A stretch of 55,054 nt of DNA from a virus (IMGVR_UViG_3300044846_002992:1-55054); one strand, 5' to 3'; positions 8,936 through 27,200 are shown, counted from the stretch's first letter. A program made the numbers and translations. Notes: generated by a model from the sequence alone, not told the origin.

Positions 8936-9481
8936 TCACCCTTCCCTCGTCCAGCAGCCCGACCAAAACGGAAACGCGTCCGCGCTCCCAAGCTGATCGC
9001 GAGGAACCCACACTTTGAGCGGCAAATAGCACCCGCAAGCTCCGCAAGCCTCGGGCGCGTCCACCTTCTCGGGTGGATGAATGGTGAGCTTCAAAGCGTC
9101 CTTGCACGTCGGGCACCCCGCCACCGAAGAGCGAAGCGGGCACCCTCTGCAAATGGAAGCTCTGCGATGCGCCTCCTGCGGAGCCACCAAAGAGCTGTCC
9201 ACTACGCGCTTCGCCATGAAGCGGAGGAAATTAAGAGCCGATCCCACCGACACCAAGCGTCGCTTCGCGCCGCCGGGAGCACGCTTGACGTGCTTGGGGT
9301 AGGCAGCAGCCAGCGCAGTCCAAACGAGCGATTCCCAGTTGATTGGGAGCCTTAGGTCGTTCTGGTCGTAATGACGCCTAAATTGATTGAAAAGCTGACC
9401 TGTGGTTTTGCCCGATAGGCGAACGCCCTCGACGGTGACGCTGAATTTACTTGGCACAGGCCCGTTTGTGGTCCATTTCAT
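8936..9481 (-). CDS. Cys-rich (probable Zn-binding) hypothetical protein
   Basis: RASICRGCP..CPTC..CGACGCYL..K..CW; fits exactly between the ligase stop and the tRNA. Confidence 0.75.
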   Translation of the reverse strand: MKWTTNGPVPSKFSVTVEGVRLSGKTTGQLFNQFRRHYDQNDLRLPINWESLVWTALAAAYPKHVKRAPGGAKRRLVSVGSALNFLRFMAKRVVDSSLVAPQEAHRRASICRGCPLRSSVAGCPTCKDALKLTIHPPEKVDAPEACGACGCYLPLKVWVPRDQLGSADAFPFWSGCWTREG

Positions 9482-9520
9482 GCGCGTCAGCCTACCTCCT
9501 GGTTTTGTTGACGCAAGAAC

Positions 9521-9596
9521 AACCGGGCATGACCCAAGGCTGGCGAGCTGGTTTCCAACTCCGGCTGGGTGAGTTCGATTCTCACTCCGGTTGCCA
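9521..9596 (+). tRNA. tRNA-Trp(CCA), slightly atypical
   Basis: Acceptor aaccggg/tccggtt, discriminator G and CCA; anticodon loop tt-cca-ac (U31-U39 mismatch); T arm gtgag-ttcgatt-ctcac; weak D arm. Confidence 0.75.
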
Positions 9597-9604
9597 TTTT
9601 CAAA

Positions 9605-9632
9605 AGCAGGATAGCTCAGAAGGTAGAGCGTT
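9605..9632 (+). pseudogene. 5' half of an interrupted tRNA-Met(CAT)
   Basis: agcagga-ta-gctc-agaaggta-gagc-g-tt: the acceptor strand is complementary to tcctgct at 10183-10189, and the D arm is intact. Confidence 0.8.
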
Positions 9633-9637
9633 TTTTC

Positions 9638-9666
9638 TTGATGCTGACTAGGCTACCCCACATCCT
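9638..9666 (+). promoter_or_regulatory. putative sigma70-type promoter of the HNH insert (near-leaderless mRNA)
   Basis: TTGATG-17 nt-CATCCT, followed by ATG 5 nt later. Confidence 0.4.
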
Positions 9667-9671
9667 CCCGC

Positions 9672-10148
9672 ATGCCCATCTGTAAAAAGTGCGAATCCAG
9701 ATTTCCCTGCAAAATCACAATCGAAGGCAAAAGGCGAAATCTCGCCAAACGTCGCTATTGCCTCATTTGCTCTCCTTTTGGAGCGCACAATACCATCCAG
9801 CTACATATAACGCAGCCGCCGAAGCTTGAAAGGAAATGTGATTCCTGCCAACGGGACTACATCTACGAAAAAAGCAAAGGCCATAAAGCAACCCGATGTA
9901 ATTCATGCACCCAGTCCGAAAGAAGAAAGGCGCGAAAACGACGCCTCGTTGATCTTAAAGGAGGCCAATGCGAAAAATGCGGTTACTCAAAATCATTAGC
10001 TGGTCTTCATTTTCATCATAAAGATCCAACCATCAAAGAATTTGAAATCAAACACGTCTTTGGAATGAAGATGGATACCCTGCTTCGGGAGATTGAAAAA
10101 TGTTCTCTCCTGTGCGCAAATTGCCACGCGGAAGAACACGAACGATAG
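9672..10148 (+). CDS. HNH homing endonuclease with N-terminal Zn-finger motifs
   Basis: CEKCGY..LHFHHKDP..KEF..EIEKCSLLCANCHAEEH, with additional CxxC pairs; more AT-rich than its neighbours. Confidence 0.9.
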   Translation: MPICKKCESRFPCKITIEGKRRNLAKRRYCLICSPFGAHNTIQLHITQPPKLERKCDSCQRDYIYEKSKGHKATRCNSCTQSERRKARKRRLVDLKGGQCEKCGYSKSLAGLHFHHKDPTIKEFEIKHVFGMKMDTLLREIEKCSLLCANCHAEEHER

Positions 10149-10193
10149 CCCATACCCCAATTGTCGTAGGTTCGAGTCCTACTCCTGCTACCA
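10149..10193 (+). pseudogene. 3' half of an interrupted tRNA-Met(CAT)
   Basis: Loop cc-CAT-ac, stem strand cccaa, variable loop ttgtc, T arm gtagg-ttcgagt-cctac, acceptor tcctgct-A-CCA. Confidence 0.8.
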
Positions 10194-10214
10194 CTTTTGC
10201 GAGTAAGCGACGTT

Positions 10215-11231
10215 GGCCCGTGTCGCGCAATGTCCTCGCGAACGATGCGAATTCCAAATTCGTTTCGTGTGAACGGGCCGCCACCCTCCAGTCCTTCAAG
10301 GCGTAGCCCACCCCCTCGGTGAGGGGTCTCGCGGTGCAAACCCGCGTGGAGGATTGGAGTGTGGTGGAGGCGTCATAGCTTAGTGCAGAGCGTCGGGCAA
10401 ATAACCCGCATGAACGGAACGTAGCAAACTCCTGGCGCGAACGAAAACCACACAGACACCCCGGAAAGACGGGGCGAGACACATCCAGCGCCCTAAGAAA
10501 CAGGCTCGACCTGCCCAAAGGCTGGATTGCGGGCGGAGCGTCATGCCGTTACCGGACACCGTAACCGGACTATTTCCGGGAAATACTAGTCCAATCCCGA
10601 AAACTGGACCACAGCAGTATCTGTGGAGGCTAGTCCAGAATAGCCATACCTGCTGGGCTTGGCGGAGTCACCCGCCTATATCGTCCGGGATGAATCATCC
10701 GAGACCGCAGTGGCCAAACCTGCGAAACTAAAGGGCATCAATTTCCAATCCAATGAGAGAGCGGCGCGGAAGCCAAAGCACAGCAGGAGACGTATTCCAC
10801 CTGTCGCTTGAGACGCGCCTACAGTCGGTGATGCAACGCGCTTTAATCCGATGTCAGCCTGTGCAAGCGCGACTAGCAGGAGCCGTAGTAGCGCACGGCC
10901 TCTCTCACCCTTTCCAATGACACCTCAGCCTGCCGAGACCGTCCAGCCGGGGCGCGGAGCGCGCGCGTTAGGCGCATAATGCTCCCTCGCAAATGTCCGG
11001 AATCAGGGGCGTAGCGGGTTGGGGTGCCACCTTTCACACAATGACGCGTCATCGCAAAGGAGCGGGGCCCAGATTGACGACCAGCTCCATGAAGTTTGGC
11101 GTTAATTCCTTGAAACGGACAAACGCTGGGATGCACGAAACCCCAAGTGGGGCAGCGGTGGGGCCAAACAGCCCCCTTGAATAATTATGGGAAATAGCCG
11201 CCGGAGCCAGTAGCCGCTGGCGCGCGTCACC
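10215..11231 (+). ncRNA. about 1 kb array of structured, partly tRNA-like RNA units
   Basis: No credible ORF. Successive units are closed by terminal helices at 10215-10283, 10281-10367, 10370-10438, 10543-10738, 10754-10909, 10918-11031 and 11042-11231. Confidence 0.7.
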
Positions 11232-11260
11232 TTTTTGTCAACAAAACCAAATCAACCCCT

Positions 11261-11716
11261 ATGAAAACAGACACCTCAATTGCAGCGCCTCAAAGAGCCT
11301 CTGCCCAAATCACGCCAAAACCAACAAAGGCCCAAATCATCAATGCCATTATTCAAGAGACCATCGCTGCCCGCATGGTTGAGAATGCCAAAAGGGAGCA
11401 AAAGCGATTGGTTATTCAGGCAAAGATGGATAAGGAAATCCAAAAATTAAAAAAGCGCTCCATCAAAATCGGAGACCTGGTGATCAACAACAGCTCTGGC
11501 CCAGACATTGCCGTTCCTTATCAAAAAATTAACGGAACGCCAGAAATGGCAAGGCTCGCCTCGGAAATCAAAAAACTTGCACCCCTTACAACCTGTCCAT
11601 TCAACGTAAAAGAGGAGGTTGTTCAGCGAATGGAAAATGAAATGATTGCCTTCATTCTGAGTCAGCCAGGAATGAAAAACGCCATCCAATCGACCATTCA
11701 AAAGCTTGGCTTGTAA
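11261..11716 (+). CDS. hypothetical protein
   Basis: Clean ORF after a palindrome copy; TAATG overlap with the next gene. Confidence 0.75.
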   Translation: MKTDTSIAAPQRASAQITPKPTKAQIINAIIQETIAARMVENAKREQKRLVIQAKMDKEIQKLKKRSIKIGDLVINNSSGPDIAVPYQKINGTPEMARLASEIKKLAPLTTCPFNVKEEVVQRMENEMIAFILSQPGMKNAIQSTIQKLGL

Positions 11717-12102
11717 TGGACGAACTTGAGCAGATCAGAGCTGACATGCTTGCCCGAAAGCTCAAGCAAAACGAGCGCAGGGCCAAAGCGGGCAAAAAGC
11801 CAATGCATCCCGAGCTTGTCCGCAAAACAGCCAAAAAGACCCCCTCACGAGCCAGCAAGCCGCCTCCAGCGCCATCAGGGGAAGAAGCTGATACCAACCT
11901 CTCATTTGATGAATGGAAAGCCTGTGGTTGGTCCGTGAAGAGAGGAGAAAAGTGCTCAGGGTTTGACGCGGAAGGCATCCCGCAATTTAATAGAAGCCAG
12001 GTTAGAAAAACCAACTCATGGAAAACAAGCCATCAAACGCCATTATCAATCACGCACTCGTTCACGAAAAAGCGCTCAAGCGGGCCGTCTCGGAAAAGCT
12101 GA
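11716..12102 (+). CDS. hypothetical protein with an ArdC-N-like motif
   Basis: LSFDEWKACGWSVKRGEK resembles the 'F..W...G..V.KGEK' ssDNA-binding motif; overlaps the next ORF by 85 nt. Confidence 0.55.
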   Translation: MDELEQIRADMLARKLKQNERRAKAGKKPMHPELVRKTAKKTPSRASKPPPAPSGEEADTNLSFDEWKACGWSVKRGEKCSGFDAEGIPQFNRSQVRKTNSWKTSHQTPLSITHSFTKKRSSGPSRKS

Positions 12103-12746
12103 CTTGGGAGCAAATCAGCATTCACTGCGGCATTGCGCCACATACAGCCAAATCCTACTGCAAAGTGCTTGGGATTGACGTCTCAAATTTGAGAGGCAAA
12201 CGCGTCAAGCTCGCCAGATCAAAGCACGCAGACACCATCATCAAGCTTCGCGAAGAAGGACAAACCCTTGAGGAAATTGGGGGCAAAATCGGAATTACGA
12301 GAGAGCGAGTAAGACAAATTCTGGCAAGGTGGTCTCCAAACACCATTATCAGAGTGAAACACGCAGCCATCAAAACCTGTCCCGTGTGCTCAAGCGAGTT
12401 TTCGGGACAAGGGAGAACATGCTCTCAAAAGTGCGGAGGCATCAAAAGAGCCAAGCATTCATACACTCGCGATTTGGCTGTTCAAATCATGAAGCTGCGC
12501 GAAAGGGGCCTGACCTGGGAGCAGGTAAGCAGCCAACTAATTCCTGGAGTTCATCACCCAGGATGGTTTGTCGGGCTTCACAGGGTTAAAGCCCAAGTTT
12601 TCTCAAGCGAAGAAATTGCCATCCATTTCTCAAAACACGGAGAGCCACGCGCTAAGCAGCAAGAAATCAAACTTTCCACCACTACCCAAAAACCCTCCAA
12701 ATCAATCATCACCAAGCTGAAAGAAGCCATTTATGGAAAATCCTGA
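12018..12746 (+). CDS. multi-HTH (sigma70 region 4-like) regulator with a Zn ribbon
   Basis: LREEGQTLEEIGGKIGITRERVRQIL; CPVC..CSQKC; two further LTWEQ HTH-like segments. Confidence 0.75.
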   Translation: MENKPSNAIINHALVHEKALKRAVSEKLTWEQISIHCGIAPHTAKSYCKVLGIDVSNLRGKRVKLARSKHADTIIKLREEGQTLEEIGGKIGITRERVRQILARWSPNTIIRVKHAAIKTCPVCSSEFSGQGRTCSQKCGGIKRAKHSYTRDLAVQIMKLRERGLTWEQVSSQLIPGVHHPGWFVGLHRVKAQVFSSEEIAIHFSKHGEPRAKQQEIKLSTTTQKPSKSIITKLKEAIYGKS

Positions 12747-13092
12747 AGAAGACCCCATCATCAAAATGATCCGCTCCATTGCTCAAGAGCGGCGCGGCCA
12801 ATTTGCAGCCTTGAGTGAAGCGGAGGCTGAAATGAAAAAAGACTCCGACAAGGTGGAGCGTGAAATTCTGATGGAGCTGTGGGCAAAAGCCGGGGACGCG
12901 CCACACACCTACTACATCGCCATCAAAACCATCCATCAATTTGTCGAGGCCCTCAATGGGATGCGATCAATCGAAGGTGTTCCAATCGACATGCACATCC
13001 TCATCTGCGAAACGCTCGCAAAATGCGCAGAAGTGGATGCTAGGGCCTTGAGGGCGGTTCAGGCCGCCAAAGAAAAACACAACGTGGAATGA
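12733..13092 (+). CDS. hypothetical protein
   Basis: Overlapping operon-style ORF. Confidence 0.7.
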   Translation: MENPEEDPIIKMIRSIAQERRGQFAALSEAEAEMKKDSDKVEREILMELWAKAGDAPHTYYIAIKTIHQFVEALNGMRSIEGVPIDMHILICETLAKCAEVDARALRAVQAAKEKHNVE

Positions 13093-13346
13093 AGACCCCA
13101 TCATACCAACAGCTCACCAATTGGTGCGACTTGCATGGCATCACTCTTACGCGAGAAGCGGGTGGCGTCAGGGCTGTTGCCTATGACCGCAACCAGCAAA
13201 TCATTACGTCCATTTTCTCATCGGCAAACTCGGCAGTGAAGGGGAAAGTCAATGAAGCCGCGTGCGCCATTCACGCATGCGATGCCATTGCTGAATCGCT
13301 GCTCATTGTAAAGCCCTCTATAGCCTTCCAGCTCAACTCAAAATGA
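13089..13346 (+). CDS. hypothetical protein
   Basis: ATGA overlaps on both sides. Confidence 0.7.
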   Translation: MKTPSYQQLTNWCDLHGITLTREAGGVRAVAYDRNQQIITSIFSSANSAVKGKVNEAACAIHACDAIAESLLIVKPSIAFQLNSK

Positions 13347-14242
13347 AACAAGCCTCCCTCACTCCGCGACAGTATCACCAACTGCAATTTGATCTAAACA
13401 AGCTGCCCGACCTAACGAAGACAGGTCCAATCTCAGCCTCCATCCTGAGCGCTGCGCGAGACCCTCTCCGAATGGTGCTGTGCCAAAAAGCGCAAACCAA
13501 CGAAATGCAGTGGGGCAATCTCGTTGATACCCTCTGGCTGACCCCCGCTCTGTTTGCCTCTGAATACGCCCTACTGCCCGAAGACGCGCCTCGCGATGTT
13601 CGTGGAGACAAACGCATCATGAACGCCAAGAAGCCGTCTCAGGACTCCCTGGACGCCATTGCGTGGTGGAATGGCTGGGATGCAAAAACGAGAGGTCAAA
13701 CCCCCATCAAGCAGGCAGAGCTGGATGAGGCCAAAATGGCCGTCAGCATGCTCAACCAAAATGACTTGGCCCGCTCCATCCTGGAGGCATCAAGCAAGCA
13801 GGTGGCCCTTGTGGGAGATTCGCCCTATGTCCCTGGAGCCAAAGCAAAATGCCTCATCGACCTCCTGCCAACCAGCGGGCCTTTTGTTGACGCAATTCCA
13901 GACCTCAAGACCACCGGGCAAATGGGAGAAAAGCAACTGGCCTCCACCGCGTTCACCTTCGACTACATCTTCAAGCTGGCCTACTACGGAGTGCTGGCAG
14001 AAATCGCCGGATTCGGCCCCAGGACGCGAGGTGTGCTGGTTTGGCAAAACTCCTCTTTCCCCTTTGAGGTGAAGGTGAGAGAGATCCCCAAGTCGCAAAT
14101 GGACATAGCTCGGCAGCTTCTGATGAGTCGCCATCGCAAACTCCAATCAATCAACCCCGCTGACATCAGATCCCACTTCGACACCACCCTCCGAGAAATG
14201 CCATTGCCCGACTGGGCGATGAATGCTTACGCTTCGGAATGA
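13343..14242 (+). CDS. PD-(D/E)XK exonuclease (RecE/ExoVIII, DUF3799-like)
   Basis: ISASIL, MQWGNLVD, KCLIDLL, DLKTT and Y..KLAYY. Confidence 0.8.
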   Translation: MKQASLTPRQYHQLQFDLNKLPDLTKTGPISASILSAARDPLRMVLCQKAQTNEMQWGNLVDTLWLTPALFASEYALLPEDAPRDVRGDKRIMNAKKPSQDSLDAIAWWNGWDAKTRGQTPIKQAELDEAKMAVSMLNQNDLARSILEASSKQVALVGDSPYVPGAKAKCLIDLLPTSGPFVDAIPDLKTTGQMGEKQLASTAFTFDYIFKLAYYGVLAEIAGFGPRTRGVLVWQNSSFPFEVKVREIPKSQMDIARQLLMSRHRKLQSINPADIRSHFDTTLREMPLPDWAMNAYASE

Positions 14243-14682
14243 AAAAGCGCAAAGCCGCGAAGAAACGCCCAAAACCCAGAGCGGGCCTAGAGCGCCCCTG
14301 GAACAACGGAGCGTGGACAGACGCGAGAATGCGGGCGTTTGCCATGAGCGCTCTCAGACGAGCCGCGTGGCCCCCGAAACACCAAGTCATTCAACGCGCC
14401 TTCGTCAAAAAAGGAACCAATACCAAGACTGGAAAGCCCTGCATGCTTCATCGCTGCGAGGAGTGCCAAGGGTTATTCCCGAAGGGGTCAATGAAAGCCG
14501 ATCACACGGAGCCGGTCATTCCACTGTCCCACAACTGGGCCGAAGGGGACAACTTCCTCGGCTACAACTTCAACGAAGTGATGCGCCGTTTGTGGATTGA
14601 AGCCGACGCTGGATGGGGCGTCCTCTGTGAAGGCTGTCACAACAAGAAGAGTTTGGAAGAAAAAGCTGCACGCAAATCATGA
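14239..14682 (+). CDS. HNH-family endonuclease
   Basis: CEECQG..KADHTEPV..LCEGCHNKKS. Confidence 0.8.
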   Translation: MKKRKAAKKRPKPRAGLERPWNNGAWTDARMRAFAMSALRRAAWPPKHQVIQRAFVKKGTNTKTGKPCMLHRCEECQGLFPKGSMKADHTEPVIPLSHNWAEGDNFLGYNFNEVMRRLWIEADAGWGVLCEGCHNKKSLEEKAARKS

Positions 14683-15026
14683 ATTTGGAACCCTTCTGCT
14701 CGCGCATCAAACTCGTTGGCTTAGAGCCTCAAATCAAATGGGCCACATCCATCCGTAAGAAAAAGGTGGAAGCGTGGAAAGCGATGACCTTTCGCCATCT
14801 AGTCATGGCAACAAAGCCTCATTTGACTGATGCCAACTTCAAAGCCATGGGATGCGTGACGGATAAGCACATTATCGCGTTCCTGTGGGCTGTTGCAAAG
14901 CATTCAATGTCATGCCCAAAAGCCCAATGGTGGATGCAGCACAGGGATGATCACATCGCCTCATGGCTCCCCCATTCCATCAAAGAGTGCGTAGCCCATT
15001 TCTCAAAAACCAAGCCATTCAAATGA
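14679..15026 (+). CDS. hypothetical protein
   Basis: LVG...QIKWATSIR..AQWWM; ATGA overlaps. Confidence 0.7.
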   Translation: MNLEPFCSRIKLVGLEPQIKWATSIRKKKVEAWKAMTFRHLVMATKPHLTDANFKAMGCVTDKHIIAFLWAVAKHSMSCPKAQWWMQHRDDHIASWLPHSIKECVAHFSKTKPFK

Positions 15027-15232
15027 GCCAAGGAATAACCCTTTATGGATCGGACGATGTCAGTCGTGCAGGACACAACATGCAGGCTGCCGCAAACGAT
15101 ATGCTTCGCGCGTCGAGAACCATAGAAGAATGCACCAGACGTTTGGAATTTCTTTTTGGCCAAGGATACGGATCTAACCTAGACCGCCTGATCGAAGCGC
15201 TGGAAAAAAATGCCCCACCTATTGAAAAATGA
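15023..15232 (+). CDS. hypothetical protein
   Basis: ATG at 15023 overlaps the upstream TGA; MSQGITLYGS... Confidence 0.65.
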   Translation: MSQGITLYGSDDVSRAGHNMQAAANDMLRASRTIEECTRRLEFLFGQGYGSNLDRLIEALEKNAPPIEK

Positions 15233-15504
15233 CAATCAACACCTCAGACATGGAAAGCGCGTGCCGCGCCTGGGAGCGCGATGTTGCCTTATGGCAGGTA
15301 TCCAGAGACGAAGGCGAAGAAATCCCGTGTCCACAAAAACCCGAGGGTTACGACCTGTTCGTTCAAGGTGAAGACCCCATGAACTTTTTGTCAACAAAAG
15401 GTCCACGCTGCCAAGGAGGCGGCCTAGTTCCAGCAAGCTGGACATCAACAACACTTCCGGTAAGGCTACCGGAACAACATTTGCACCAACCCGACCTATT
15501 ATGA
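15229..15504 (+). CDS. hypothetical protein
   Basis: ATGA overlaps on both sides. Confidence 0.6.
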   Translation: MTINTSDMESACRAWERDVALWQVSRDEGEEIPCPQKPEGYDLFVQGEDPMNFLSTKGPRCQGGGLVPASWTSTTLPVRLPEQHLHQPDLL

Positions 15505-16457
15505 CACAACCAGCCGAATCCGTCCTCGTCATCCCTCGCTCAGCATTCATCGAGCATGAATCATTTGAGGGCTTCCGCTCTCTTGAGGGCAGAACCGACT
15601 TGGGTGATTATCTACAGGGAGCGCCAACCAAAGTGGCTCAGTTTCTCAATCGCGACGAAGCCGAAACCAACCCGTTCTTCCTTCAAATCATCCCCTACAT
15701 CATCCTTCTCTCTGAAGACAACGTCTTCCTCTACAGGCGTGGCTCCATTGGCTCGGAAAGCCGCCTTCACGGGCAGTATTCCATTGGCTTGGGTGGTCAC
15801 GTCAATTCGGAGGATGACCCGTCAGGAGAGCCATTCTACGCCTTCCTCAATGGCGCAGCCCGAGAGCTGAAGGAGGAGGTGGGTCTCACTGTCGATTTGG
15901 AAACCCTACGCGGGTCCGCAATCGGCCTCGTGAACGACGAGCTAACTGATGTGAGCAAGGTTCATCTGGGTGTGGTTCTCATCATCAAAGTGAGCGCTGC
16001 CGCAGCCAAAGAAATTCTGACCAAGTGCGAGAACACTCTCTTGGAACCCCAATGGATTCCGCTCTACGAGCTGGAAAATCCCCAGCTTGCCACCCAGTTT
16101 GAAAGCTGGTCCTCCTACGCTGCATCCCACCTCATCGCACAAGCCTGTCAGGAGCCCAAGTGGGACGACAAGGCCTTCCGTGAGCGTGTCGCCATGCTGT
16201 CCATTTCGGCAGCCAACCTATCGTCCTCAGCTACCAGCTTCCTGCTTCAGGAGTCGCCTCGCGGTCACATGATCAGCAAAGCCATGGTTGAGGCTGGCGC
16301 TGGCGAAGTTCAGTGCATGCTCGCTGGCCTCATCGGAAACGCCGACATTGAAGGGCATGAGGTGAAGAAAGCCGCAAAGGAGTTTCACGCGACGCTTGGC
16401 GACATTGTAAAGCACCAGAAAGTCACCATGAAAGACCTCACCGTCACGCCTCAATGA
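15501..16457 (+). CDS. NUDIX-family phosphoesterase with a C-terminal extension
   Basis: QIIPY, ESRLHGQYSIGLGGHVN, RELKEEVG and VHLG match the COG4112-type NUDIX pattern. Confidence 0.85.
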   Translation: MTQPAESVLVIPRSAFIEHESFEGFRSLEGRTDLGDYLQGAPTKVAQFLNRDEAETNPFFLQIIPYIILLSEDNVFLYRRGSIGSESRLHGQYSIGLGGHVNSEDDPSGEPFYAFLNGAARELKEEVGLTVDLETLRGSAIGLVNDELTDVSKVHLGVVLIIKVSAAAAKEILTKCENTLLEPQWIPLYELENPQLATQFESWSSYAASHLIAQACQEPKWDDKAFRERVAMLSISAANLSSSATSFLLQESPRGHMISKAMVEAGAGEVQCMLAGLIGNADIEGHEVKKAAKEFHATLGDIVKHQKVTMKDLTVTPQ

Positions 16458-17254
16458 GCGAGCTTCCACACAACGCCCAAGTCCTAGGAAAAGGAGGAAC
16501 CTTCAAAGTGCCCGTTGGCGGCTTCCACGGCTGGATGCGCCTTGGCGATGATCCCTGGCAAGAAGATCACTGCTCTGGCGTGACGGCGGCGCTGGAGTTT
16601 GCATGCCCGATTGGCAGTGATGTCTGGAAGTTAAATCAGCCGGAAGTTGAGTCTGAAGTTGCGTCAACAAAACCAGAAGAGCGCGAAGGGGAAATCCCAT
16701 TGGCCGACCTCATTAACGCCTGTTGCCGGACTGATTTTGAAAATGATGAAGAAGCTAGGCGGGCAATACGAACAGAGCAATTCCAGCGCATGGAAAAACT
16801 GCTGTGGCCACGAAACCCAGGCAAAACAGTGAGTCCAATGCCCATCACGCCAGAAACCCACAAAGTGGAAGGCTACCCGCAATTGCCTCAGAATAGCTCA
16901 GGTGAGGCTTGCGCATCTCCAGAGGTGCCAAGCCTTCCAAATCCATTTGAAGCCCTTCAGAACGCTCCTGACGAAGAAGAAGACGTTTTGGAAGAAGCGC
17001 TCCGAATCACGAGTGGCGACAGGCAAAATCAATACGGCCCGCCAGATCAAGACTTCACCCGCACAGCAGCAATGTGGAGCGCTCTCTTCGGGCACAAGCT
17101 AAAGAGCCCCTTCGAGGCTCGTGACGTAGCGATGGCGATGATTTGCTTGAAGTTGTCCCGAGAAACTCATCAGAGAAAGCGCGACAACGCCGTTGACGGG
17201 GCTGGCTATTTCAGGTGCCTTCACCTATGCAATTTGAGCAAAAAACCGGAATGA
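16454..17254 (+). CDS. DUF6378-like (putative nucleotide diphosphohydrolase) domain protein
   Basis: C-terminal LEEALRITSGDRQNQYGPP..F..TAAMWS..MICLKLSR..DNAVDGAGY. Confidence 0.75.
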   Translation: MSELPHNAQVLGKGGTFKVPVGGFHGWMRLGDDPWQEDHCSGVTAALEFACPIGSDVWKLNQPEVESEVASTKPEEREGEIPLADLINACCRTDFENDEEARRAIRTEQFQRMEKLLWPRNPGKTVSPMPITPETHKVEGYPQLPQNSSGEACASPEVPSLPNPFEALQNAPDEEEDVLEEALRITSGDRQNQYGPPDQDFTRTAAMWSALFGHKLKSPFEARDVAMAMICLKLSRETHQRKRDNAVDGAGYFRCLHLCNLSKKPE

Positions 17255-17937
17255 GCAACAAAGCAGCGCAACGCGCAAAGCGTCTTCAGAAAGCCATTGA
17301 AATTGGAGAGCAATCCCTCAAGCGCCTCAATCTCGACCGAAACAACCCGAAGCTCGTGAGGCAGGCCGTAATGTCCATGAGGCTGTGTCACGCTCTCTCT
17401 CAGCCAATCAACGTGAAAATTAGCGAATCAATGGAGTGGTTCAAAGAGAGCGCCGAAATAGAAAAAGAGGCAGAAGTCGGAATTGGCATCCCAACCCCAT
17501 CAAAGGTGCTGTTTCTCGATGTGGACGGGGTTCTTAATCGCTGCGGAAAATCCAATCAGGGCCTGGAAACAGACAAAGTTGAACTGCTTGCTCAAATCGT
17601 TCGGGAAGCCAATCCTTCAATTGTCGTCTCTTCCACATGGCGAATTTTCGAGCATCAAATAAACAGGCTGAAAACAGTGCTGCAAAGCATTGAGGCCAAC
17701 TTCATTGGAACCACTCCATGGCATAATGGTAAAACTGAAGGGGGTCTCTACATAGCCAAGGCGCGAGGAAACGAAATCCAGGAATGGATGGACGAAAATG
17801 GAACTCCTGAGAAGTTTGTCATTCTTGATGATGATTCAGACATGCTCCACCTCAAGCCTCACCTAATCAAAACTGAGTCATTTGTGGGTCTCACGTCAGA
17901 AATCGCCAAATCGGTAATTGAGGCGCTGAACGCATAA
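17251..17937 (+). CDS. HAD-superfamily phosphatase (Swiss-army-knife RNA-repair HAD type)
   Basis: VLFLDVDGVLN, IVVSSTWR, RGNEIQEW and FVILDD; start at ATG 17251 (ATGA overlap). Confidence 0.85.
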   Translation: MSNKAAQRAKRLQKAIEIGEQSLKRLNLDRNNPKLVRQAVMSMRLCHALSQPINVKISESMEWFKESAEIEKEAEVGIGIPTPSKVLFLDVDGVLNRCGKSNQGLETDKVELLAQIVREANPSIVVSSTWRIFEHQINRLKTVLQSIEANFIGTTPWHNGKTEGGLYIAKARGNEIQEWMDENGTPEKFVILDDDSDMLHLKPHLIKTESFVGLTSEIAKSVIEALNA

Positions 17938-18012
17938 GCTCATGGACGCCGCCCCTAAATCTCCACATCGCCAGGGACGCTCCTCGGCGTTCCATGAAGC
18001 GACTTGTTCTGC
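17925..18012 (+). mobile_element. attC-like recombination site 4
   Basis: GCTGAAC ... tcatggacgccg / cggcgttccatga ... CGACTT GTTCTGC. Confidence 0.75.
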
Positions 18013-18199
18013 TCTTGTGGACTTCCTTATTGCAGAGACTTCCGAGGACGCTGTGTTTTGCTTCATCTCTGCAATCTCCTGCTTTGGAATCACGGATAGG
18101 GAAGACGCTATCGCCGCAATGGAGAAAGACCACGACACCCGCAACTGGGCTGTCATCACGGCAAACCTGATCCCCGAGCCTTATGTGCAGAACAGCTAG
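17942..18199 (+). CDS. cassette ORF 3, hypothetical protein
   Basis: ATG lies within the attC4 stem; the stop falls just after the inverse core of attC5. Confidence 0.55.
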   Translation: MDAAPKSPHRQGRSSAFHEATCSALVDFLIAETSEDAVFCFISAISCFGITDREDAIAAMEKDHDTRNWAVITANLIPEPYVQNS

Positions 18200-18238
18200 C
18201 TCATCCACTGCTAGGTCGGATGCGGCGACCTGTTCTAT
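18187..18238 (+). mobile_element. attC-like recombination site 5 (short)
   Basis: GCAGAAC (exact reverse complement of the attC4 core GTTCTGC) ... catcc / ggatg ... CGACCT GTTCTAT. Confidence 0.7.
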
Positions 18239-18267
18239 TGAGCGACAGCCGGGGAGGAGAGGTGTGG

Positions 18268-21200
18268 TCAGCGCCTCCACTGATTGTCCCAAATTTGGGC
18301 GCCTGTTTTGTTGACAAAACGCTTGTTCAAATCTTGCTGGAGTTCCCGCGGAGTGAATGGCATGCCTCCCAAAAGGAGAAGTCCCATATCCCGGACGGAA
18401 ACTTCATCAGGGGCGTTGCTGATCACCGTGAGAGGCTCCACGATATTCGCCACGCCGTCCATGACCAGAGAGTAGCGAGCCAGATCGTTCATCAGGGATG
18501 AAGTGGCGGTGTAGATGGCATTGTCCCATCCGCTACCATCACTGATGTCGGTGTTTTCCAAGGTGAAGCCAGCACGCTCAAAGTGAGCCGGGCTTCCTGG
18601 AATCAGAGGATCAACAACCTTGTTCATGGCGTATTGCCCAAATGCTCCACCGACCGCAGTGGAGGCCACAAGGCCAATGTTGCCATAGGGAACCTGCTTT
18701 AGAACCTCCATGCCCAATTCGACAGTGATCTGGTGCAGGTCCTGATTACTCTTAGACTCGTCAAACCCTCCAACTGAATCGGACCAGCCGATGGGACGCG
18801 TGCCACCCAGGGTTAGCGCAACCCACTTCATCATAGTGCGCTCGTCTGGGTTTTTCGGATCAATCCCGAAGAAGCTTGCATACAAATCCTCGCGCTCTTC
18901 CTCGTCCATTCCTGTGAGCATGCCGATTCCCTGTGCGATAAGGTATGACGCCACTTTGTATTTCACAAGGCGGAACAGGACGTTCTGAATGACATTCGAC
19001 GCAAGGAGGCGCTTGCCAACCGCGCGAGCCTGGGCATCTCCATTCATGATCATGCTGTAGGCTGCCATGCTGTTGCCAGCAACATGGACCTGGTGGTTCG
19101 AAAGCTGCATCGCGCCAAGCCTCAAGATCTCAGCCCCGATGGTCTCCCGTTGCTGGAACGCGCCAGCCTTCTTTGACTGGTCGGCGGTAGCGGCCATGTC
19201 TGCCACGTCCCGTTCGGAGCGGCGCAGGACAGAGGATGTGACCTCTTCCATGCTGAAGGAGGGCTCTAGGAACTCCTTGACTGTCAGTTTCGCGGGCATG
19301 CCAGCCGCCTCACGGGCAGCATTGATGTGCCTCACGACAGAATCTATGAAGATTGTATTGGCGATGGTCTTTTCCGCCCCGCCGATCACTGTCTGGACCA
19401 TGCGACTACCTGCCTCCATGGCAAGACTGCCAGCTCTCCCCACAGTGTCCGTCACGGGGGATAGGATGTTGGTGGCTCTTCCGGCAAGACGGCCCCGTGA
19501 ACGCATGCCTTTCGACGGGCGCACGTAGTTGATGTCGTCAAGGTAGTCGCGTTCGCCATTGGCCTTTCGAAGCTGCACGTTGATTCCAATCTCGGCGACG
19601 CGACGGTCAATGCGAGAAGCAAGGTTGTCAGGTAGCGCGGTTCCGGTCAAGGCGCGCAGAGGCGCTCCAAGGCCGTTCATGGCCCTGTGTAGTAAGTAGT
19701 CAGCGTAAAGAGCCATGTATCCCACGTTCTTGCCAACGCCTCCATGCACCATTGCGTAGGTGATGACTGCTGGCAGGGTTTGGGTATAGAGCTGGGAAAC
19801 AGAATTGAGAGCCTTCACGATGCCGAGCTGGTGAAGCTTCTGGACAAATCCCATCGCGCGATGCTTCGGTCCCTTGGAGGCCATCTCCTTGCGCAAGATT
19901 TGTTGCCCCATGTGGGCAATTGCGTTCGCTGCGTCAGTGAGCTGGTCTTCCTTGCCAGGAAGAAGAGTGGAGGCGTTCTCGTCGATGTAGCCATAGTCAT
20001 CAGTGCCCTTGGCCAAAACTCCATCGTGAATGTGGGTGGTGCCAACGGTGGCACGGAAAGCCTCGTAGGCCGGAGTGACGTTCTGCCTAAAGAGCATATC
20101 CTCCGCGATGCGCAGAGGCACCGTCAGGCCGTTGGTGTCGAGCATGTGCATCTCTCCGTGCTTCGGGTTGCGGACAGGCGACTGCATGAATGCAGCGCGT
20201 CCAAGCCCGAGCCGCTCATGGAGTGGAGCAATCTGCTCTGAGGTTGAGTGGGTCCTGCCGAAGGTTTGCCACATCATGGCCATTGGAGTTACTCCCTCCA
20301 TAAATTTGGTGTCCACACCGGAAAGTCTGGCTTGCTCGACATACGACTCACGCAGGTAGTTCAGGGTTTCGTTGACAAAAGTGCCCCATTGCAGAGAGCG
20401 TGGAGGCAGCGTGGCCTGCAGGCTCAGAAGCTCAGCATCTACATCAAAGCTGGACCCGGTGGTCATCCTGGCAAGGGGATCACGAAACGTCTTTTCAAGC
20501 TCTTGAACAATAACCCTCTGCTCAAGCAGGCGATAGGTCTCCTCGGTCATGTAGGCCTTCAGCTCGGAGGACTTCTGGCGAAGCTTCTCGATGCTCATGG
20601 AGAGAAGATCAGTCCTGGTGGTAGCTCCGGTAGTAGGAGGAAGCCCGGCAAGGATTGCCTCCTCAATACCATCCAGCGCCTGCAGGAACATCTTCTGCAT
20701 GGTCTTGACACGATCCTGAACCTTCGAGCCTGAAGGGCCAGATTGGATGTATCCACGCATCGCAAAGAACATATATCCAAGAGACGACTCCCACAGAACG
20801 TCAGGCCTGCTGGACGCCCTGGTAAAGGCGCGCTTGAAGCGACCACCAAAAATTTTGTTCATCTTGCGGTTGAACAACTTGGATACCTCATTGAGTTGAG
20901 CGCGATGATTATTGATGCCAGTCTTACCAGCAGGACCGTAGGACAGCACGCCAATCATGTCCTCGGCAGACTCAATGGCTGCAAACTTCTTGGCGAACAA
21001 CTTCCTCATGGCTCCGTCATGGTTCATCAGCATGGAAAACACGCCACCCTCAGCAAACGGCTTTTCTTTTTCCGTCCAGATGCGGGATGGAAGATAGCCA
21101 GACTCGATCAGAGCGGCAGACTGATTACTGCCAATCTGGGCCTCAGCAAGGTTGGCAACGACGTCAATCTTGCGAACAGTGCTGATTGTTGGGCTGCCCA

Positions 21201-24200
21201 TCTCACGCATCAGGGCTTCAGCCTGCACCTGCACCGAGCCGGAAAGCATATTGCCCTTCAGGGCCGCGATGATAGAAGCAATGCGAAGCTCCGTCGAAGA
21301 GCGGACAGACGCTTTTGGATCGAAGGCCCCAAGCTCTGCAGCAGTGTTTCCAATACGAGATGTGGCGCGATGGAAGCCAAGAATCGGATTGAGCGAGACC
21401 ATGTAGGCAGAAGCGTCGCGCTTCGACTGTGGATCAATGTGCGCCGCAGTGCGGAGGTTGGCGGAGCCATCAGCATTGACCTTGAGTGGAGCCCGTGGAG
21501 CGGCTGGCTTGGAGTCCACCGGACCAATCTGGTTATCCACAACGTGGTAAGGCTCACCAGTGAGTATGGTCATGGTATCAGCCACAATCTCGGCCTGTTC
21601 GTCAGCCGTGCGGGCCGCGACGTGGTTTGCAGCAAATTTGTCCAGAAGGCTGGAGTTGGCGATGTTCCTAGTATAGTTCTCCTCCCAAACCTGGGCTCTC
21701 CAGAGATGGTCACGGCGAAGGGCCTCAACGTCGTCTGCAGCTCCGAAGTAACGAAGCTGGCTCGGAAGATCCATGCCGCGTGGGGCGAACACCTTCTGTT
21801 TGCGCCTGATATATTTCTGCTCTTCGCGGAGGGCGTCCGAAAGAAGCCTCTCGGCCTTGCCGCGTTTATGGCGCTCGCGCTCCTGAAGGATGTTACGGGA
21901 CAGACTGAGTGCAATCTGGCGCTTGGTATTGGTGCTTAAGCCTTGAACGGCGGCGTGATTGGCTGACTCCATCTCGCTCAGAGTGCGGAACACGTCCATT
22001 ACCAAGGCGTTGGGAGTGTCTGGAGTGTTGTCCACGCGTGCCTCCCGGTCAGAGAGGCGCTGGGCCAGAATGCTCGTAAGCGCTTGCGCCTGCTGCTCAA
22101 ACGGGAACACGGACGCATGGATGGATGCCGCGATTGCCTGACGCTTCTCATCAGGAGACATCGTCTTGCTGATCAGGGCACTCACAATTTGGGGAAGCGC
22201 TTCATCAGGGATTTGGATTTCCCTATTCGGCTCCACACCGGAGAACTCCAGCGAGCTCAGGCCATTGGATGGGTCGTATGTCGCCAAGCCTTCCGCGGCC
22301 TCTAGGGCGGCAGCGGCTTCTGCGGTGCGCCTCACGCCAGTTGTGGTGGACATGCGGGTGGCGTGCGCCTGGATGCTTGCAATGGAAGCCAGGGCGTCAT
22401 CCAGAGAGTCCAACGCGTTGTTGCCCATGCGGAGCTCTGTAGACATCAGGCGCATTCCCATGCGCTCACCAACGAAGGTTGTGTAGGCATCGACAACTTG
22501 GTTGAACTTGCTTCTGGCCCTGCCCATCGCCATCACCGCGCGGAACAACGACTCATTTGCAGACTCCTTGGTTGCAAGGTTTTCAGCAGCCTCGCCTGCG
22601 GCTCGGGCGGCTTGCGCCTCCTGATGAAGGCGTTTGAAATTGGCTTCAGCCTTGGACAGCAGCTTGGAAACGCGGCGAGACTCGGCGGCGATTGCGGCCT
22701 GTTTCGACTCGATAATGACAGGGGTTCGGGTCAGGCCATTGCCGGGACTGGTTGCTGCAATCCTGTCACGCAGGGCATCCACTCCAAAAGCCTTGGCAAG
22801 CTGGGATAAGCTGGTCTCAATTTGCACGTCGGTCATGACGTGAGGAGCCTTCCCTCCGTTCATGACGGCGACGTAAGCATCAAACGCGGTCTCGTCTTTG
22901 ACGCTTGGGTTGCGCTGGTAGGTAATAGAGTTCGCCGCCCATTCATCAGCAGCAACACGCTGCCTGCTCTGACGGGCCTTGTAACGGCCTCTGGCTTCGT
23001 TCAGGCGGGTCTCAAGGACGTTCAGACGCTCCATGTCGGCCTTGCGACGCGCGGACTCAGCACGGGGATTCTGGATGGCAGGAGACGCAATCCTGGACAG
23101 CACTCGGGCATTAACCCTCGGGGCTTGCACGAGACGCAGGGAACGAAGCAGATCGCCACTCCGAGACTCAAATTGCTCGATCACAGAGTTGGTCATTGCA
23201 TCCACCAGCTCGCTGGCACCATCGAAGTGGGACTTAAGGAGAGGGCCCGCATCAGCCCAGTGGCCTTCTGCGATGGTCAGGTATTTCCCGCGGCCTAACA
23301 CCTCGCGAAACTGCTCCATATCACGAGCCGCCAACAAGTCCTTCCTGACCTCGTCCAGCTCGCTGATGGCATCAGAGACCACCTTAGCCTCAGCCATTGC
23401 GTTCGCGGCGGAAGTCTCCATCTCCGCGATTTCGCGCATGGCCTTGTTCGCCTCGCGCCTGATCATCGTCTGCTGCCAGGTGAGGCTGTCCACCTCCTGC
23501 TCGACTGGCTGAATGTCAAGATGACTGAAGCCATGGTTGGCCACTTGATGGAACAGCTCCTCTTGCGCCTTCCTAAAGACCTCCCCAGTCGAAAGGGCGC
23601 TACCAGTGGCGAGACCAGGCACAGTCAGGACATACACTCCGTTTTCATCAATGGTCCACTTTGTTGGAAAAGTGGCAGGCTTTTGAATGGGCTGGCGAAA
23701 AAGCTTTGCCCCTTTCACGGCGGCATCGTGAGCTGCTGTTTTCTTGAGCCTGTATCCGACGATGCGCGAGTAGGGAAGTCCAGTGATCATACCGGCCTTG
23801 TCCCACTGATCGCGACCACGCTCATCTTGCCCAATTCGCATCTCAATTCTCACGGGCTCCACCTCATCTCCCGTGTATTCCCTGCCAGTTTTGTCAACAA
23901 AAATAGGCCTGCCTTGGGCGTCGTGCTTCTGAAGCTTGCGCATCACAACACGGCCCTGTTCCTGACGCTCCCGCTTGATCTGCGGGAGGTTGGCGGCAAT
24001 CTCCAAACGGGCCTTGCCCCAGGCGTTCGTGACTTCGACGGCACCGTCGGCCTGCGCAATTGGGAATGCTCCCTTCTTGAGCCTGCCTTCATACCAGTTT
24101 TGCCCGGAGCCTCCCATCTGCGAAAACGACCACTGCTTGTAATGAGCGGCGACGTCCTCCTGCCATTCCGTGGTAAACGGAACGACGCTCAGGAAGTAGC

Positions 24201-27200
24201 TGCGCAGGCGCTCTGCGGCCTCTCCAGACATGGCGAGGAGCGACTCCACCGAAGGCGAGGCGATGCCAGCGCCGTTCCAGCCACCGCGGTCACTTTGGTC
24301 TCCCAAAATCCAATCGCGTAAGTCACCATCGGGAAGAGCCGCCAGCATCTGCCGGGCCTCGAAAGAAGTAAGCTTGGTTTCGCGGTTGGTACCAACAAGA
24401 GCCCCAAGGCCACGCGGAGCCTTGGCGTGCTTCTCATCCACAAATGGATTGCTCTGGTCCGCAGAATCCCACGATGGATTCACATTATCCAGGACAGAAT
24501 GCAGCAGACTGTTGGCCCACTCAGCGCGGATGGACATCACCGGAGTGCCGGATGGCGTTCCCACAATGGACATGCGGCGCTGATAACCTTCCTCAGTCTC
24601 ACCGTCAGTGACAACCTCCTCAGCAAACTCATTGGCAAGCGCGTCAAACTCCTCGTCTCCAAACTGAACATTCTCCATGCCCTTGCCGCGGTCAGCAAGG
24701 CTTCTTGAAATACGTTCCTCGGTCTCGATAAACTTGTCGTAACCAGGGAAGCGTGCGTCATCAATAAGCTCGCCACGGGCCGCTACAGCCTCAGGACGGA
24801 TGGGGCCGATGCCAAGCGGCATCACATTCATGGAAAGTGACAAGGCAAGCTTGGCGTCGTTATTGGTCATCGCCAGCGCAATGACGCCAGCGGCGCTCTC
24901 GGGAGAAAGACGTCCAGCCATCGAAATTGAGACAGAAGGATCAAACCACGGGGCAGCAGGATGGTTTCCGATATTGCGGGCGGCGGCAATAGCCGAGCGC
25001 TTTGCCTTCTCGGTCTCGCGGGCTGCAACAAGGTAGATTTTAGCGTCCTCCTCCTCAGTGATGGTCTTTCCGACCAGTTCGTAATCAGATTCCAGACGTT
25101 CACGGATGGCCTGCGCCAAGGAGTCGGGGTTGTTGCGAGGGCCGCGAATGGCTTCCGTGATTCGCCTGGCTTCTTTCACCACATCAACAGCCCCATTTTC
25201 ATGCAGCCAAACCAGCATGGCCTCAAGAGCGGCCACGGAGTCTTCAGGCGTCACTTGGACAGCGGAGCCGTATGGGAACGCCAAGACGGGAGCCTGCTTG
25301 TCAGGAATGAACAGGACGGTTGGAATACGGGCACCAGTTTCTTGAGTAACAAGCCCCTGCATGCCCATCTTTTCAAGCTGGGTATTGTCAATTTTGTCTG
25401 TTGCGCCACGAACCTCTTCGGACTTGTGGCGGTCCTGGCGACGATCATCACGCAGCAACAACTCGCGCTGGGCTGGAGCGCCAGTGCGTCTGGCAACACC
25501 ATCGCCAGCAACAACGCTGCCTCGATCCTGAGAACTAGTCCAGGGCACGTCACCGTCGATCACCGCGATGTTCCTGATCATCATTGCAACCGCGCTCACA
25601 ACGTGCCCGCTGGCCTGGTCGTCGCCACCATGGAAAGCGGCGGGATTGATTGGCATTGTAGCACTTGCGTAGAACTGGACATGCCCGCCACGCTCGCGCA
25701 GAGCCTCAATGGTGGCAGCCGCTTCAGGGTGGGATGCCTGAAGATTGGCAAGCGCACCGTCGAAAGTGTTTCGTTCACCCCGAGAATCAAACAGGTTCTT
25801 TCCAAAACGTGTGATCAGCCCGCGTTGTTTATGCTCTTCGTGACCCTGGGCAAGTCTGAACATGATTTCATTATCGAGCGCGTCAGTGTCATATCCTTCA
25901 CCAAGCGCGAAGCGTGGGTCATTGACGAAGGAGTAGACGTGCTCGCGGTTGCCTCCAAGCAGGGCGCTGAGGGCCCTTGCGCGCCAGCGGCCAAGGGACA
26001 CGGCCTGCATGGCCTCACGGTTCTGCTCGGCCCGAACACGCTCTGCGGTCAAGTCGCCCTCTTCCATCCGACTGGCTGTATCACGGTCTGCGGAGGTTGT
26101 AGCGTAGTAGTTGCCGACAGCCTCATCGTTCTCTGGGTCAACGCCATGACGCAAAAGCGCGGCCCTTTCCAGGGAGATGCTCTCGAACTGCTTCATCAGC
26201 TCAACTGGCTCGTCTGGACGAATCAGGGAAATCATTACTGAATTCTGCAATGGGCCAAACTCCGCATCCTTGGGTCGCGCGGCTTCCTGCGTCGATTGAG
26301 CCCGGACATCAATCTCAAACTCGATTTTGCTCATCTCGTCAGGATCTACAGGGAACTCGGCCCTGCGGCTGGCGGAGCGGCGCATGCTGTCGCGCCTGTC
26401 GTTGGCCTGTCTGATGGCTGACTTGTAGATGGTATTGACCAAGGAGACTCCATTGTAGAGTTCCCAGGCACGGAAAGTCAGATTGGTCGGGCGCTCTGCA
26501 AGCGCCTTGGCTTGAGCAGCAAAGACTGAAGCCTGCTCAATACCAGCCAGCAGACGGTCGTATGCGCCACGGGATTTCTTGAGGCGGTCGCGAAGAGGCA
26601 CGCCATCAATCACAAGGTCTTTTGTTGACGCAAGAAACTGAACCAGCCTGGGCGCGAGAATGGAGTTGGCAAGTCCAGCGGGCGTGAGGCCGTCACGATG
26701 ACTCAAGAGCGGATGCGTCTGATCTGCAGAGACGTCGTGCATCGTTGATACAAACTGGGCGGCAGCGCTCACCAAGTCATCAAGGAACCCGGAGTCGAGC
26801 ATCTTCGCCAGGTTCTCTTCGGGGCCAACTTCGAAATTGATTTCGCCGCTTGGGTCTGCAAGAAGCGCAAGATCGGGAGGGGTGATGATCAGCTCTGGAG
26901 CGAACGGGGAGCGATTGTAGGTATCGACCGCAGTGATAGGTAGGGAGAATCCAGCCGAGTTTACGGCCTGCGTATTGACGCCCGGATGACCGCGCCAAGC
27001 GGCCTCCGTCAGCGACTCATAAAGCTTGCGAGTGATAGCGATGGCATTACCCTTCATCACGCTATTGCGCTCTGACGAGTCCATCTTCTCTCCGATGTCA
27101 TTGATGGACGCGCGGGAGAAGGGATCGGGATTGACACCAAGGATCTCGAACGAGCCATCCACGCCAGACATGACGTCATTTGCAACAGCCTCAACCACGA

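Follow-up and report, generated by a model that had tools for sequence, protein, structure and literature searches.

The window, a 55-kb viral record that is the whole stretch of DNA analysed here, is judged to be 52% complete. Its genes lie on the + strand from position 1 to about 18200 and on the - strand from 18268 onward, so that the locus under study is the exact convergence point of two arms. The features on which the analysis relies are the following (positions in the window, strand, description):

4947-6842, +, primase/helicase gene
6952-7075, +, attC hairpin A of the first array, left box GCATAAC, right box GTTGTGC
7266-7354, +, attC hairpin B of the first array, left box GCACAAC, right box GTTGCGC
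7556-7650, +, attC hairpin C of the first array, left box GCGCAAC, right box GTTCTCT
8243-8932, +, RNA ligase gene
13343-14242, +, exonuclease VIII-like gene
17215-17937, +, HAD-family phosphatase-like gene, the last resident early gene (Pfam HAD_SAK_2; phrog_1818)
17925-18012, + (= bottom strand), attC hairpin D, imperfect, 88 nt, identified by DNA minimum-energy fold, descriptor match and covariation
17931-18192, +, putative mobile cassette of 262 bp, made of the left-box C, hairpin D, its right box, the orf85 body and GCAGAA
17942-18199, +, cassette gene orf85, an 85-aa ORF with no Pfam or PHROG family
18187-18238, +, short terminal element E, 52 nt, left box GCAGAAC (18187-18193), right box GTTCTAT (18232-18238)
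18268-32670, -, convergent ORF of 4800 aa, whose stop lies 30 nt past element E

The + arm further contains two HNH endonuclease genes, a NUDIX gene and a DUF6378 gene, and the window has no tRNA genes. For the stretch of the window that was searched, 24 lake and freshwater metagenome runs were listed. A DNA search of deposited phages gave no near relative of the window. Protein searches returned only distant primase relatives (29-31% identity) and nothing that matched a 783-aa late protein, and scans for related loci with HAD, DUF6378 and giant-protein queries found no syntenic relatives.

The HAD gene matches Pfam HAD_SAK_2 with an E value of 1.3e-27 over residues 98-229. Its stop codon (TAA, 17935-17937) and last codons lie inside hairpin D, and so does the orf85 ATG at 17942. 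A preliminary description of this DNA had noticed that the hairpin overlaps the HAD stop and contains the start of an 85-aa ORF, which our coordinates confirm. The HAD gene is not regarded as a cassette itself, since the partner box GTTCAGC is absent upstream of it.

Hairpin D can be compared with the published rules for attC, the recombination site of integron cassettes. On the attC bottom strand, the 5' box contains AAC, which is cut between A and C, and the 3' box contains GTT (PMC5027507). The site has a spacer of 5-6 nt in each arm, a length of 57-141 bp and a variable terminal structure. Its extrahelical bases are found at position 16, usually a G, and at position 23 or 24, a conserved T, and the 6-bp stem between them is required (PMC5027507). 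The usual pattern is T-N6-G with both bases sharing one side of the hairpin (Larouche and Roy 2011, PMC3053210). In hairpin D, the left box GCTGAAC (17925-17931) and the right box GTTCTGC (18006-18012) form an R box with 6 of 7 pairs. The stem arms (17938-17951 and 17985-18000) enclose a terminal loop of 33 nt and, when positions are numbered from the right box's 3' end, the extrahelical bases are A17997 at position 16 and T17990 at position 23, with 6 bp between them. The unpaired spacer consists of CATAA (5 nt) on the 5' arm and of GACT (18001-18004) plus a G-T apposition on the 3' arm. The first bulged base is an A instead of the usual G, while the related loci L019 and L020 carry G at 16 and T at 23, and hairpin B shows the same bulge pattern as D. 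As the AAC and GTT triplets, the spacer and the bulge geometry match the published rules, hairpin D fits the attC definition to the nucleotide, the + strand being the bottom strand. Judged by its sequence, hairpin D is a genuine attC-type recombination hairpin.

The same architecture is formed by nine of ten full-size elements of the window, of L019 and L020 and of G001, a related viral record, when they are folded with DNA parameters. Its outer part is an ..AAC(G)/(T)GTT.. stem followed by an internal loop of 4-5 by 4 nt, the 3' side of which is GACT or a near variant. Its inner part consists of 3 bp, a bulged base, 6 bp, a bulged T, at least 5 pairs and the loop, and in this common fold the bulges are always on the 3' arm of the + strand. 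Terminal loops measure 28-81 nt and elements 86-134 nt, inside the published range of 57-141 bp, which element E with its 52 nt does not reach. The tenth element, G001_e1 (151 nt), does not form the pattern in its fold. The AAC and GTT triplets are invariant in 12 to 13 of 13 aligned hairpins, and the unpaired GAC(T/C)T that adjoins the right box is conserved. The left boxes (GCATAAC, GCACAAC, GCGCAAC, GCTGAAC and GCAGAAC) fit the RYYYAAC/GTTRRRY consensus only in part.

A structural descriptor (....AAC, spacer, stem of 12 bp or more that may contain up to two one-base bulges, loop, spacer, GTT....), which ignores the CGACYTGTT motif, was run on the window. It gave exactly four + strand matches, namely A, B, C and D, against a mean of 0.04 matches per strand and a maximum of 1 in 100 dinucleotide shuffles. 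The motif itself, which had been reported earlier as a CGACYT-GTT signature common to both loci, holds up: there are six copies, all on the + strand (7063, 7342, 7638, 15351, 18000 and 18226), where 0.74 are expected, and none of 100 shuffles reached six. The 15351 site has the CGACCT-GTT motif with neither left box nor hairpin, and for this reason may be a chance occurrence or a remnant. A separate pattern scan with GAGGGACCGGC...CGACTTGTT had a single match, L016, which was discarded as a chance match in unrelated GC-rich coding DNA. Protein paralogy was also considered as the origin of the repeat, since 12 of 31 residues are identical between ORF 7308 and orf85. It was rejected, because what the two have in common is the hairpin arm, and the frame in which related hairpins are read differs. 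This is the case for hairpin D and its copy in the viral record L022, and for hairpins A and B.

Covariation was studied in an alignment of 13 hairpins from six sources (the window, L019, L020, L022 and the bacterial loci L026 and L028). RNAalifold found the same structure, with compensatory (double) changes in 12 of its 17 pairs. Cells were pairing in 94.5% of cases, compared to 69.8 +/- 2.2% with shuffled partners (0 of 500 shuffles reached the observed value) and 25-50% with slid partners. Double changes are present at all 11 pairs of the long stem, or L helix, in which only 5 of about 143 cells are G-U. DNA pairing thus suits the L helix better than RNA pairing.

This last observation bears on the idea that the hairpins work mainly as RNA (processing sites, translation control or terminators) and that the cassette pattern is incidental. 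Since hairpins on the coding strand enclose stop and start codons, they will fold in mRNA, and there is one weak terminator-like site at 18212-18232, inside element E. However, terminator-like sites are not enriched (26 against 19.3 +/- 5.4 in shuffled sequence), which lends no support to the terminator function that had been suggested for the point between the arms, and Rfam gave no matches at gathering score, having no family for these hairpins. A role as RNA would also leave unexplained the integrase genes that adjoin the same hairpins, as described below, an attC geometry that is exact to the nucleotide and boxes that pair better between neighbours than within an element. We consider such a role very improbable.

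The relation between boxes is itself informative. Inside a single hairpin the two boxes differ at 1 to 4 positions, whereas each right box and the left box of the hairpin that follows are exact reverse complements. In the window this chaining holds in 3 of 3 steps, A to B, B to C and D to E, and the preliminary description was right that GTTCTGC (18006-18012) is the exact reverse complement of GCAGAAC (18187-18193). Chaining was also found in L020 (3 of 3 steps), in L022 (nine steps), in L028 (seven consecutive steps) and in L026 (ten consecutive steps, plus an 11th by eye), the exception being one L019 step that is off by a single base. A loose version of the test gave three chance matches elsewhere in the window, none of them adjoining a hairpin. 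Analysed in this way, the chimeric boxes are the expected product of cutting and rejoining at one fixed point of the box along an integron array. A MITE reading was discarded, as boxes match between neighbouring elements and not inside one.

Gene shuffling by general or phage homologous recombination, with the hairpins as linkers and no site-specific enzyme, would resemble what has been described for the PeSLs of T4-like phages (PMC4122927). These are repeated stem-loops that flank small accessory genes in variable early regions, as the hairpins do here. T4-type phages shuffle genes in this manner (PMC4122927), the window encodes an exonuclease VIII-like protein, and, from one contig to another, hairpins of the same family are alike to 85% or more over about 70 nt. 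PeSLs, as that paper presents them, are however promoter or terminator sequences exchanged by homologous recombination, where the AAC/GTT boxes, the bulge geometry and the link to an integrase are absent. In the elements analysed here the stems covary and sequence is not kept, no promoter-like sites were found within them, and complementary 7-mers that are specific to each cassette are not predicted by homologous exchange. We therefore give PeSL-like modules hardly any chance of being the right explanation.

The link to an integrase came from bacterial genomes. Twenty nucleotides from the 3' arm of hairpin B, one of them left unspecified, served as a query against 185,579 species, each represented by one genome. 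This query had three matches, all of them in Verrucomicrobia MAG loci that hold hairpin arrays. In two of these three loci, L028 and L026, an integron integrase gene lies beside the array. The L028 gene codes for a 375-aa integron integrase, is found 76 nt past the last junction on the bulge-carrying strand, and scores 394.6 bits against NCBIfam TIGR02249, for which the cut-off is 265. In L026, which is part of a 442-kb contig, a 332-aa relative starts about 40 nt past the last junction. It reaches 215.5 bits on TIGR02249, below the 265 cut-off, while Xer models give only about 117-120 bits. Among proteins of solved structure it is closest to VchIntIA, the integron integrase of Vibrio cholerae (2A3V, E 2.8e-38), to which it aligns from end to end, the IntI-specific stretch included. 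The orientation of intI in both L026 and L028 is that of ordinary integrons, with the gene directed away from the array.

The neighbours of the L026 array are prophage genes (antirepressor, AAA_24, DUF2303, PD-(D/E)XK nuclease and RNA ligase, and further VRR-NUC, primase-like AAA_25 and phage lysozyme), with ordinary chromosomal genes beyond them. This prophage is not close to the window phage, as it shares with it only the RNA ligase (48% identity) and a weak primase match. Strong covariation, together with the presence of the same hairpin family beside integron integrase genes, leads us to regard the elements of the window as integron attC sites. Verrucomicrobia are listed among the phyla having integrons (Cury et al. 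2016, PMC4889954), and they are the likely hosts of the window phage.

Strand polarity has consequences for the limits of the cassette. Bulges are on the 3' arm of the + strand and intI is to the right of the bacterial arrays, which identifies the + strand as the bottom strand. The crossover should thus be at AA|C of the left-hand box, that is, at 17930|17931 and 18192|18193. From the sequence, the most likely limits of the focal cassette are 17931-18192, and its own attC would be hairpin D, upstream of orf85. These limits are drawn from the bulge positions, the break points between L019 and L020, the orf85 tails and the integrase-side junctions of L026 and L028. L019 and L020 carry one and the same cassette in unlike surroundings: body (83% identity) and hairpin (74%) are more alike than the left (50%) and right (34%) flanks, which are bounded by the upstream and downstream AA|C. 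In L026 and L028, the junction nearest to intI consists of an ..AAC box alone, neither hairpin nor right box coming after it, which is the expected joint between attI and a cassette and so supports the AA|C crossover. When the window is compared to L019 or L020, the hairpin is 44-48% alike and the body 69-71%. As the hairpin is far less alike than the body, joint travel of hairpin and body is not supported at this distance.

Element E completes the right-hand side of the locus. Its left box consists of GCAGAA, derived from the cassette, and a resident C, and the element retains the right box and the CGACCT-GTT motif as well. It folds into a 7-bp outer stem around two small hairpins, and its interior shows a small hairpin (GTCG, 7 nt, CGAC), then CT and then the right box. 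Since the long stem with two bulges is absent, element E is not a full attC, and its earlier designation as "attC5" had to be abandoned. Elements of this type also end the arrays of L019 and of L020, in the latter just before a terminase-like gene. Comparison of element E and the other terminal elements with the attI region of L026 gave no convincing similarity. Element E is probably a resident landing site that adjoins the cassette insertion.

The preliminary description had taken the + strand as the top strand, with G|TT crossovers at 18006|18007 and 18232|18233, a cassette of 18007-18232 and element E as its attC. Several observations agree with that arrangement: genes would then take their classical place upstream of the attC, the conserved part of orf85 starts at the right box, and other contigs have their loose ends at 7348-7351 and 18013. 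Box chaining is compatible with either crossover. On the other hand, the side on which the bulges lie marks the bottom strand, the last junction before intI in L026 and L028 is the bare ..AAC box, and element E is devoid of both L stem and bulges. In addition, three different elements follow orf85 in different loci and the tails of its homologues are unlike after ..CAGAAC. A crossover at G|TT is consequently improbable, and the AA|C limits are preferred. What stood of the earlier cassette reading is that attC-type hairpins on the + strand bound cassettes at two loci, and at other positions in relatives; what did not stand are the limits 18007-18232.

The cargo of the focal cassette, orf85, has 16 homologues in metagenomes, with 58-99% identity, and no relatives in species-representative bacterial genomes or in IMG/VR. 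Conservation begins with the residues that the right box encodes and ends with those of the next left box. In the eight closest homologues the hairpin-encoded N-terminus is common and all tails are unlike after the ..CAGAAC residues; the element 3' of the gene is a different one in each of the window, L019 and L020. An AlphaFold2 model of the protein has a mean pLDDT of 77.5, with residues 1-14 below 50. Residues 22-76 are predicted as a confident four-helix domain, while residues 1-20, encoded by the hairpin, are predicted to be disordered. Searches for a function in Pfam, PHROG, the Atlas and fold comparisons had no match. The true start may be the in-frame GTG at 18017, because two homologues begin there.

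Gene orientation is another peculiarity of these arrays. Among 35 cassette bodies, 21 are open on both strands; of the others, 12 are open on the + strand alone and 2, which belong to L028, on the - strand alone. On the + strand of L022, a hairpin stands in front of each of three DNA methyltransferase genes that Pfam confirmed, and a near-identical copy of hairpin D precedes a DNA methyltransferase gene there. As genes are on the bottom (+) strand, the attC of phage-associated arrays precedes its gene, in the reverse order of the textbook cassette. In L026, the stop codon of the last cassette ORF overlaps the start codon of intI (ATGA). In the open-access literature we found no description of a cassette arrangement with bottom-strand coding.

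An integrase gene was searched for (PF00589, six frames) in the window and in six related viral records, G001 and five that share an 18-nt arm of hairpin B, all of them fragments, and was found in 0 of the 7. Only L022 has a clear array among the five, and G001 encodes only a TnpB-like protein and no tyrosine recombinase. A complete integron is thus not present in the window, as intI and attI next to the array were found only in the bacterial loci L028 and L026. The phage arrays, being attC clusters without an integrase, are CALIN-like. The first array (6952-7650) has three full attC sites, where a CALIN needs at least two that lie close together, while the focal locus alone is borderline as a CALIN because it has one full site and a short terminal element.

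Relatives of the window carry the hairpins at other places. In G001 (45-65% protein identity) the whole block 6842-8932 is absent, and hairpins are found elsewhere, after the exonuclease gene and near the contig end. This pattern supports repeated gain and loss at several loci, which is not the same as activity in the window phage itself. In L020, the orf85 homologue is part of an array. A contig of the X12 run shares only 17928-18013 (hairpin D) with the window and has unlike DNA on either side, and contigs from lake runs share hairpin B alone (7280 to 7348-7351), again with unlike DNA on either side. Thus, the hairpin families are reused between cassettes, joining other DNA in three lake runs; exchange at either box fits these hairpin-only contigs equally well. 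Joints of deletion or insertion over 6500-19500 were searched for in four of the 24 runs (X6, X12, X16 and X21) and none was found, in assembled contigs that cannot show absence.

These data have to be weighed against the possibility that the cassettes are inherited fossils, taken as a block from an ancestor or prophage that bore an integron, and immobile in this phage. In that case the two loci would not mean recurrent capture here. The missing integrase and the lack of joints in contigs from four of 24 runs agree with this view, and L026 is an existing example of a prophage with intI and an array. However, 7-mers that match perfectly across cassettes while the boxes inside a hairpin are mismatched, hairpin families that link other DNA in three lake runs, and array positions that differ in relatives, with G001 missing an entire block, argue against it. 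We regard immobile fossils as unlikely, though they deserve consideration.

All in all, we think with a probability of about 0.8 that positions 17925-18238 of this lake phage hold a single gene cassette of the integron type, inserted behind the last of the resident early genes. We propose that hairpin D folds as single-stranded DNA into the R box, the spacer, the L stem with its two extrahelical bases and the loop. An integron integrase acting in trans, supplied by the host or by a co-resident prophage, would then cut between A and C of AAC. The mobile unit 17931-18192 would comprise the attC and orf85, read on one strand, and would have been inserted next to the resident element E (18187-18238). 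Without the cassette, the HAD gene would continue as ..GCTGAA|CAGCTAG and its product would end in ...ALNS at the TAG at 18197. The anatomy, the covariation, the chained boxes and the association of this hairpin family with intI are observed; the exact crossover and the source of the integrase are inferred, and the cassette may or may not still move in this phage.

The hairpins described here have AAC/GTT boxes, spacer, bulges, loop, length and chimeric boxes in common with the attC sites and cassettes of integrons, as far as these are detailed in PMC5027507 and PMC4889954, and the integrase gene beside the array in two bacterial loci adds to this likeness. They are unlike ordinary integrons in that the genes of phage arrays are on the bottom strand, so the attC is 5' of the gene and may hold its start codon. 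The conserved unpaired GAC(T/C)T and the partial fit of the boxes to RYYYAAC are further differences. In the Treponema denticola reverse integron (PMC4909258), the integrase gene is co-directional with the cassette genes, as in L026. Unlike in Treponema, the L026 array is upstream of intI and its genes run towards intI, while the polarity of attC with respect to intI is ordinary. The Treponema array lies downstream of intI.

Clusters of attC have been reported in 21 phages, where they were treated as passengers, and 17 clusters lack an integrase (Qi et al. 2023, PMC9892861). In that report IntI1 recombined five of six tested sites from virulent phages, and methyltransferases were among the cargo. 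The CALINs of Qi et al. are phage arrays with two or more attC sites and no nearby integrase, as here, and share the methyltransferase cargo with L022 (PMC9892861). Their sites were found by IntegronFinder and assayed, whereas the present ones are known from sequence alone. With attC clusters in phages (PMC9892861) and integrons in Verrucomicrobia (PMC4889954) already on record, the kind of element we describe is a known one. What differs from the clusters of Qi et al., as they are presented in PMC9892861, and is new, is that an uncultured lake phage, whose hosts are probably Verrucomicrobia, has two sense-read arrays, each at its own locus within the early operon. Coding on the bottom strand is also new, as is an integrase that a prophage bears and that read-through from cassettes reaches.

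It is tempting to propose, as a tentative idea to which we give somewhat less than even odds, that lake Verrucomicrobia phages carry a phage-adapted integron, with all cassettes coded on the bottom strand, read-through from the early operon and swapping of early genes. If true, the attC at the 5' end of the gene may supply a start codon and a disordered leader. Arrays would be read through from the early operon and, in the L026 prophage, into intI. Phages would in this way swap early accessory genes such as DNA methyltransferases, the integrase being borne by some phages and borrowed by others.

In summary, hairpin families are common to the window, other phage lineages, an intI-bearing prophage and a bacterial integron. 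Cassette exchange driven by an integrase could thus be a testable source of the small variable early genes of phages, and phages could be a route for cassettes between hosts. The reversed order of gene and attC, if general, would mean that cassettes need not depend on a promoter beside attI.

The window block 6842-8932, comprising the first array, two more small ORFs and an RNA ligase, is missing from G001, a related viral record with 45-65% protein identity to the window, which has at that place one unrelated 75-aa ORF (L013:9830-10100). An RNA ligase, 48% identical, was found immediately upstream of the array in L026, a prophage locus from a Verrucomicrobiae MAG. Further genes in the two arms of the window, and one in G001, are the following:

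Window 496-1440: ThiF-family gene, early arm.
Window 9672-10148: HNH endonuclease gene, early arm.
Window 14239-14682: HNH endonuclease gene, early arm.
Window 18268-32670, reverse strand: single ORF of 4800 aa, first of the late arm.
G001, L017:14970-16124, forward strand: TnpB-like gene (Cas12f1-like TNB, OrfB_IS605), immediately 5' of that record's own ThiF-like gene.

For the last 499 residues of the 4800-aa ORF, no relatives were found in IMG/VR.

We also observed a near-palindrome of 14 nt, TTTTGTCAACAAAA, which occurs five times in the window:

Window 7939-7952: copy.
Window 11233-11246: copy.
Window 15386-15399: copy.
Window 18306-18319: inverted centre.
Window 23889-23902: copy.

At 7939 and 11233 the match extends further (CACCT on the 5' side and CCAA on the 3' side), start codons follow 7 and 14 nt downstream, and the ORFs behind both copies share the same N-terminal start, ATGAAAAC. 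The near-palindrome may serve as a phage promoter or operator. Another of its copies is preceded, at a distance of 23 nt, by a lone CGACCT-GTTCGTT site (window 15351-15363, within ORF 15229-15504). The site, similar to the right-hand half of the short terminal elements but with neither left box nor hairpin, could be either a chance match or a remnant.

Two further features were observed in other loci that share the window's attC hairpin family:

L022, about 5576-5630 and 7615-7665, reverse strand: repeated element of about 45 nt, with the 5' start ACGTTATTATAAC.
L019:270-300: tandem right-box-like motifs, GTTCTGC and GTTCGGC, 8 nt apart.

The L022 element lies in two cases immediately 3' of a left box and is itself a tiny palindrome (GTTAT/ATAAC); it could act as a minimal site or as a promoter. 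The L019 tandem may represent a fused or emptied junction.

Two bacterial loci bear on how arrays and genes are oriented:

L026:653-1651 (neighbours L029 and L030), reverse strand: integron-integrase-like gene in the prophage.
L028, 2042-2613, 4412-5034 and 5123-5523, reverse strand: cassette regions examined for orientation.

The L026 array, of at least 11 cassettes, lies upstream of the integrase-like gene, which has the same orientation as the array; the final cassette ORF ends in a stop that overlaps the start codon of this gene (ATGA). The best integrase match belongs to the bacterial integron L028, where at least two of the cassettes have an open frame on the classical (top) strand only. 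A plausible ORF, accompanied by a GGAGG-like site, runs along the top strand of the integrase-proximal cassette. Therefore, the attC family has both gene orientations.
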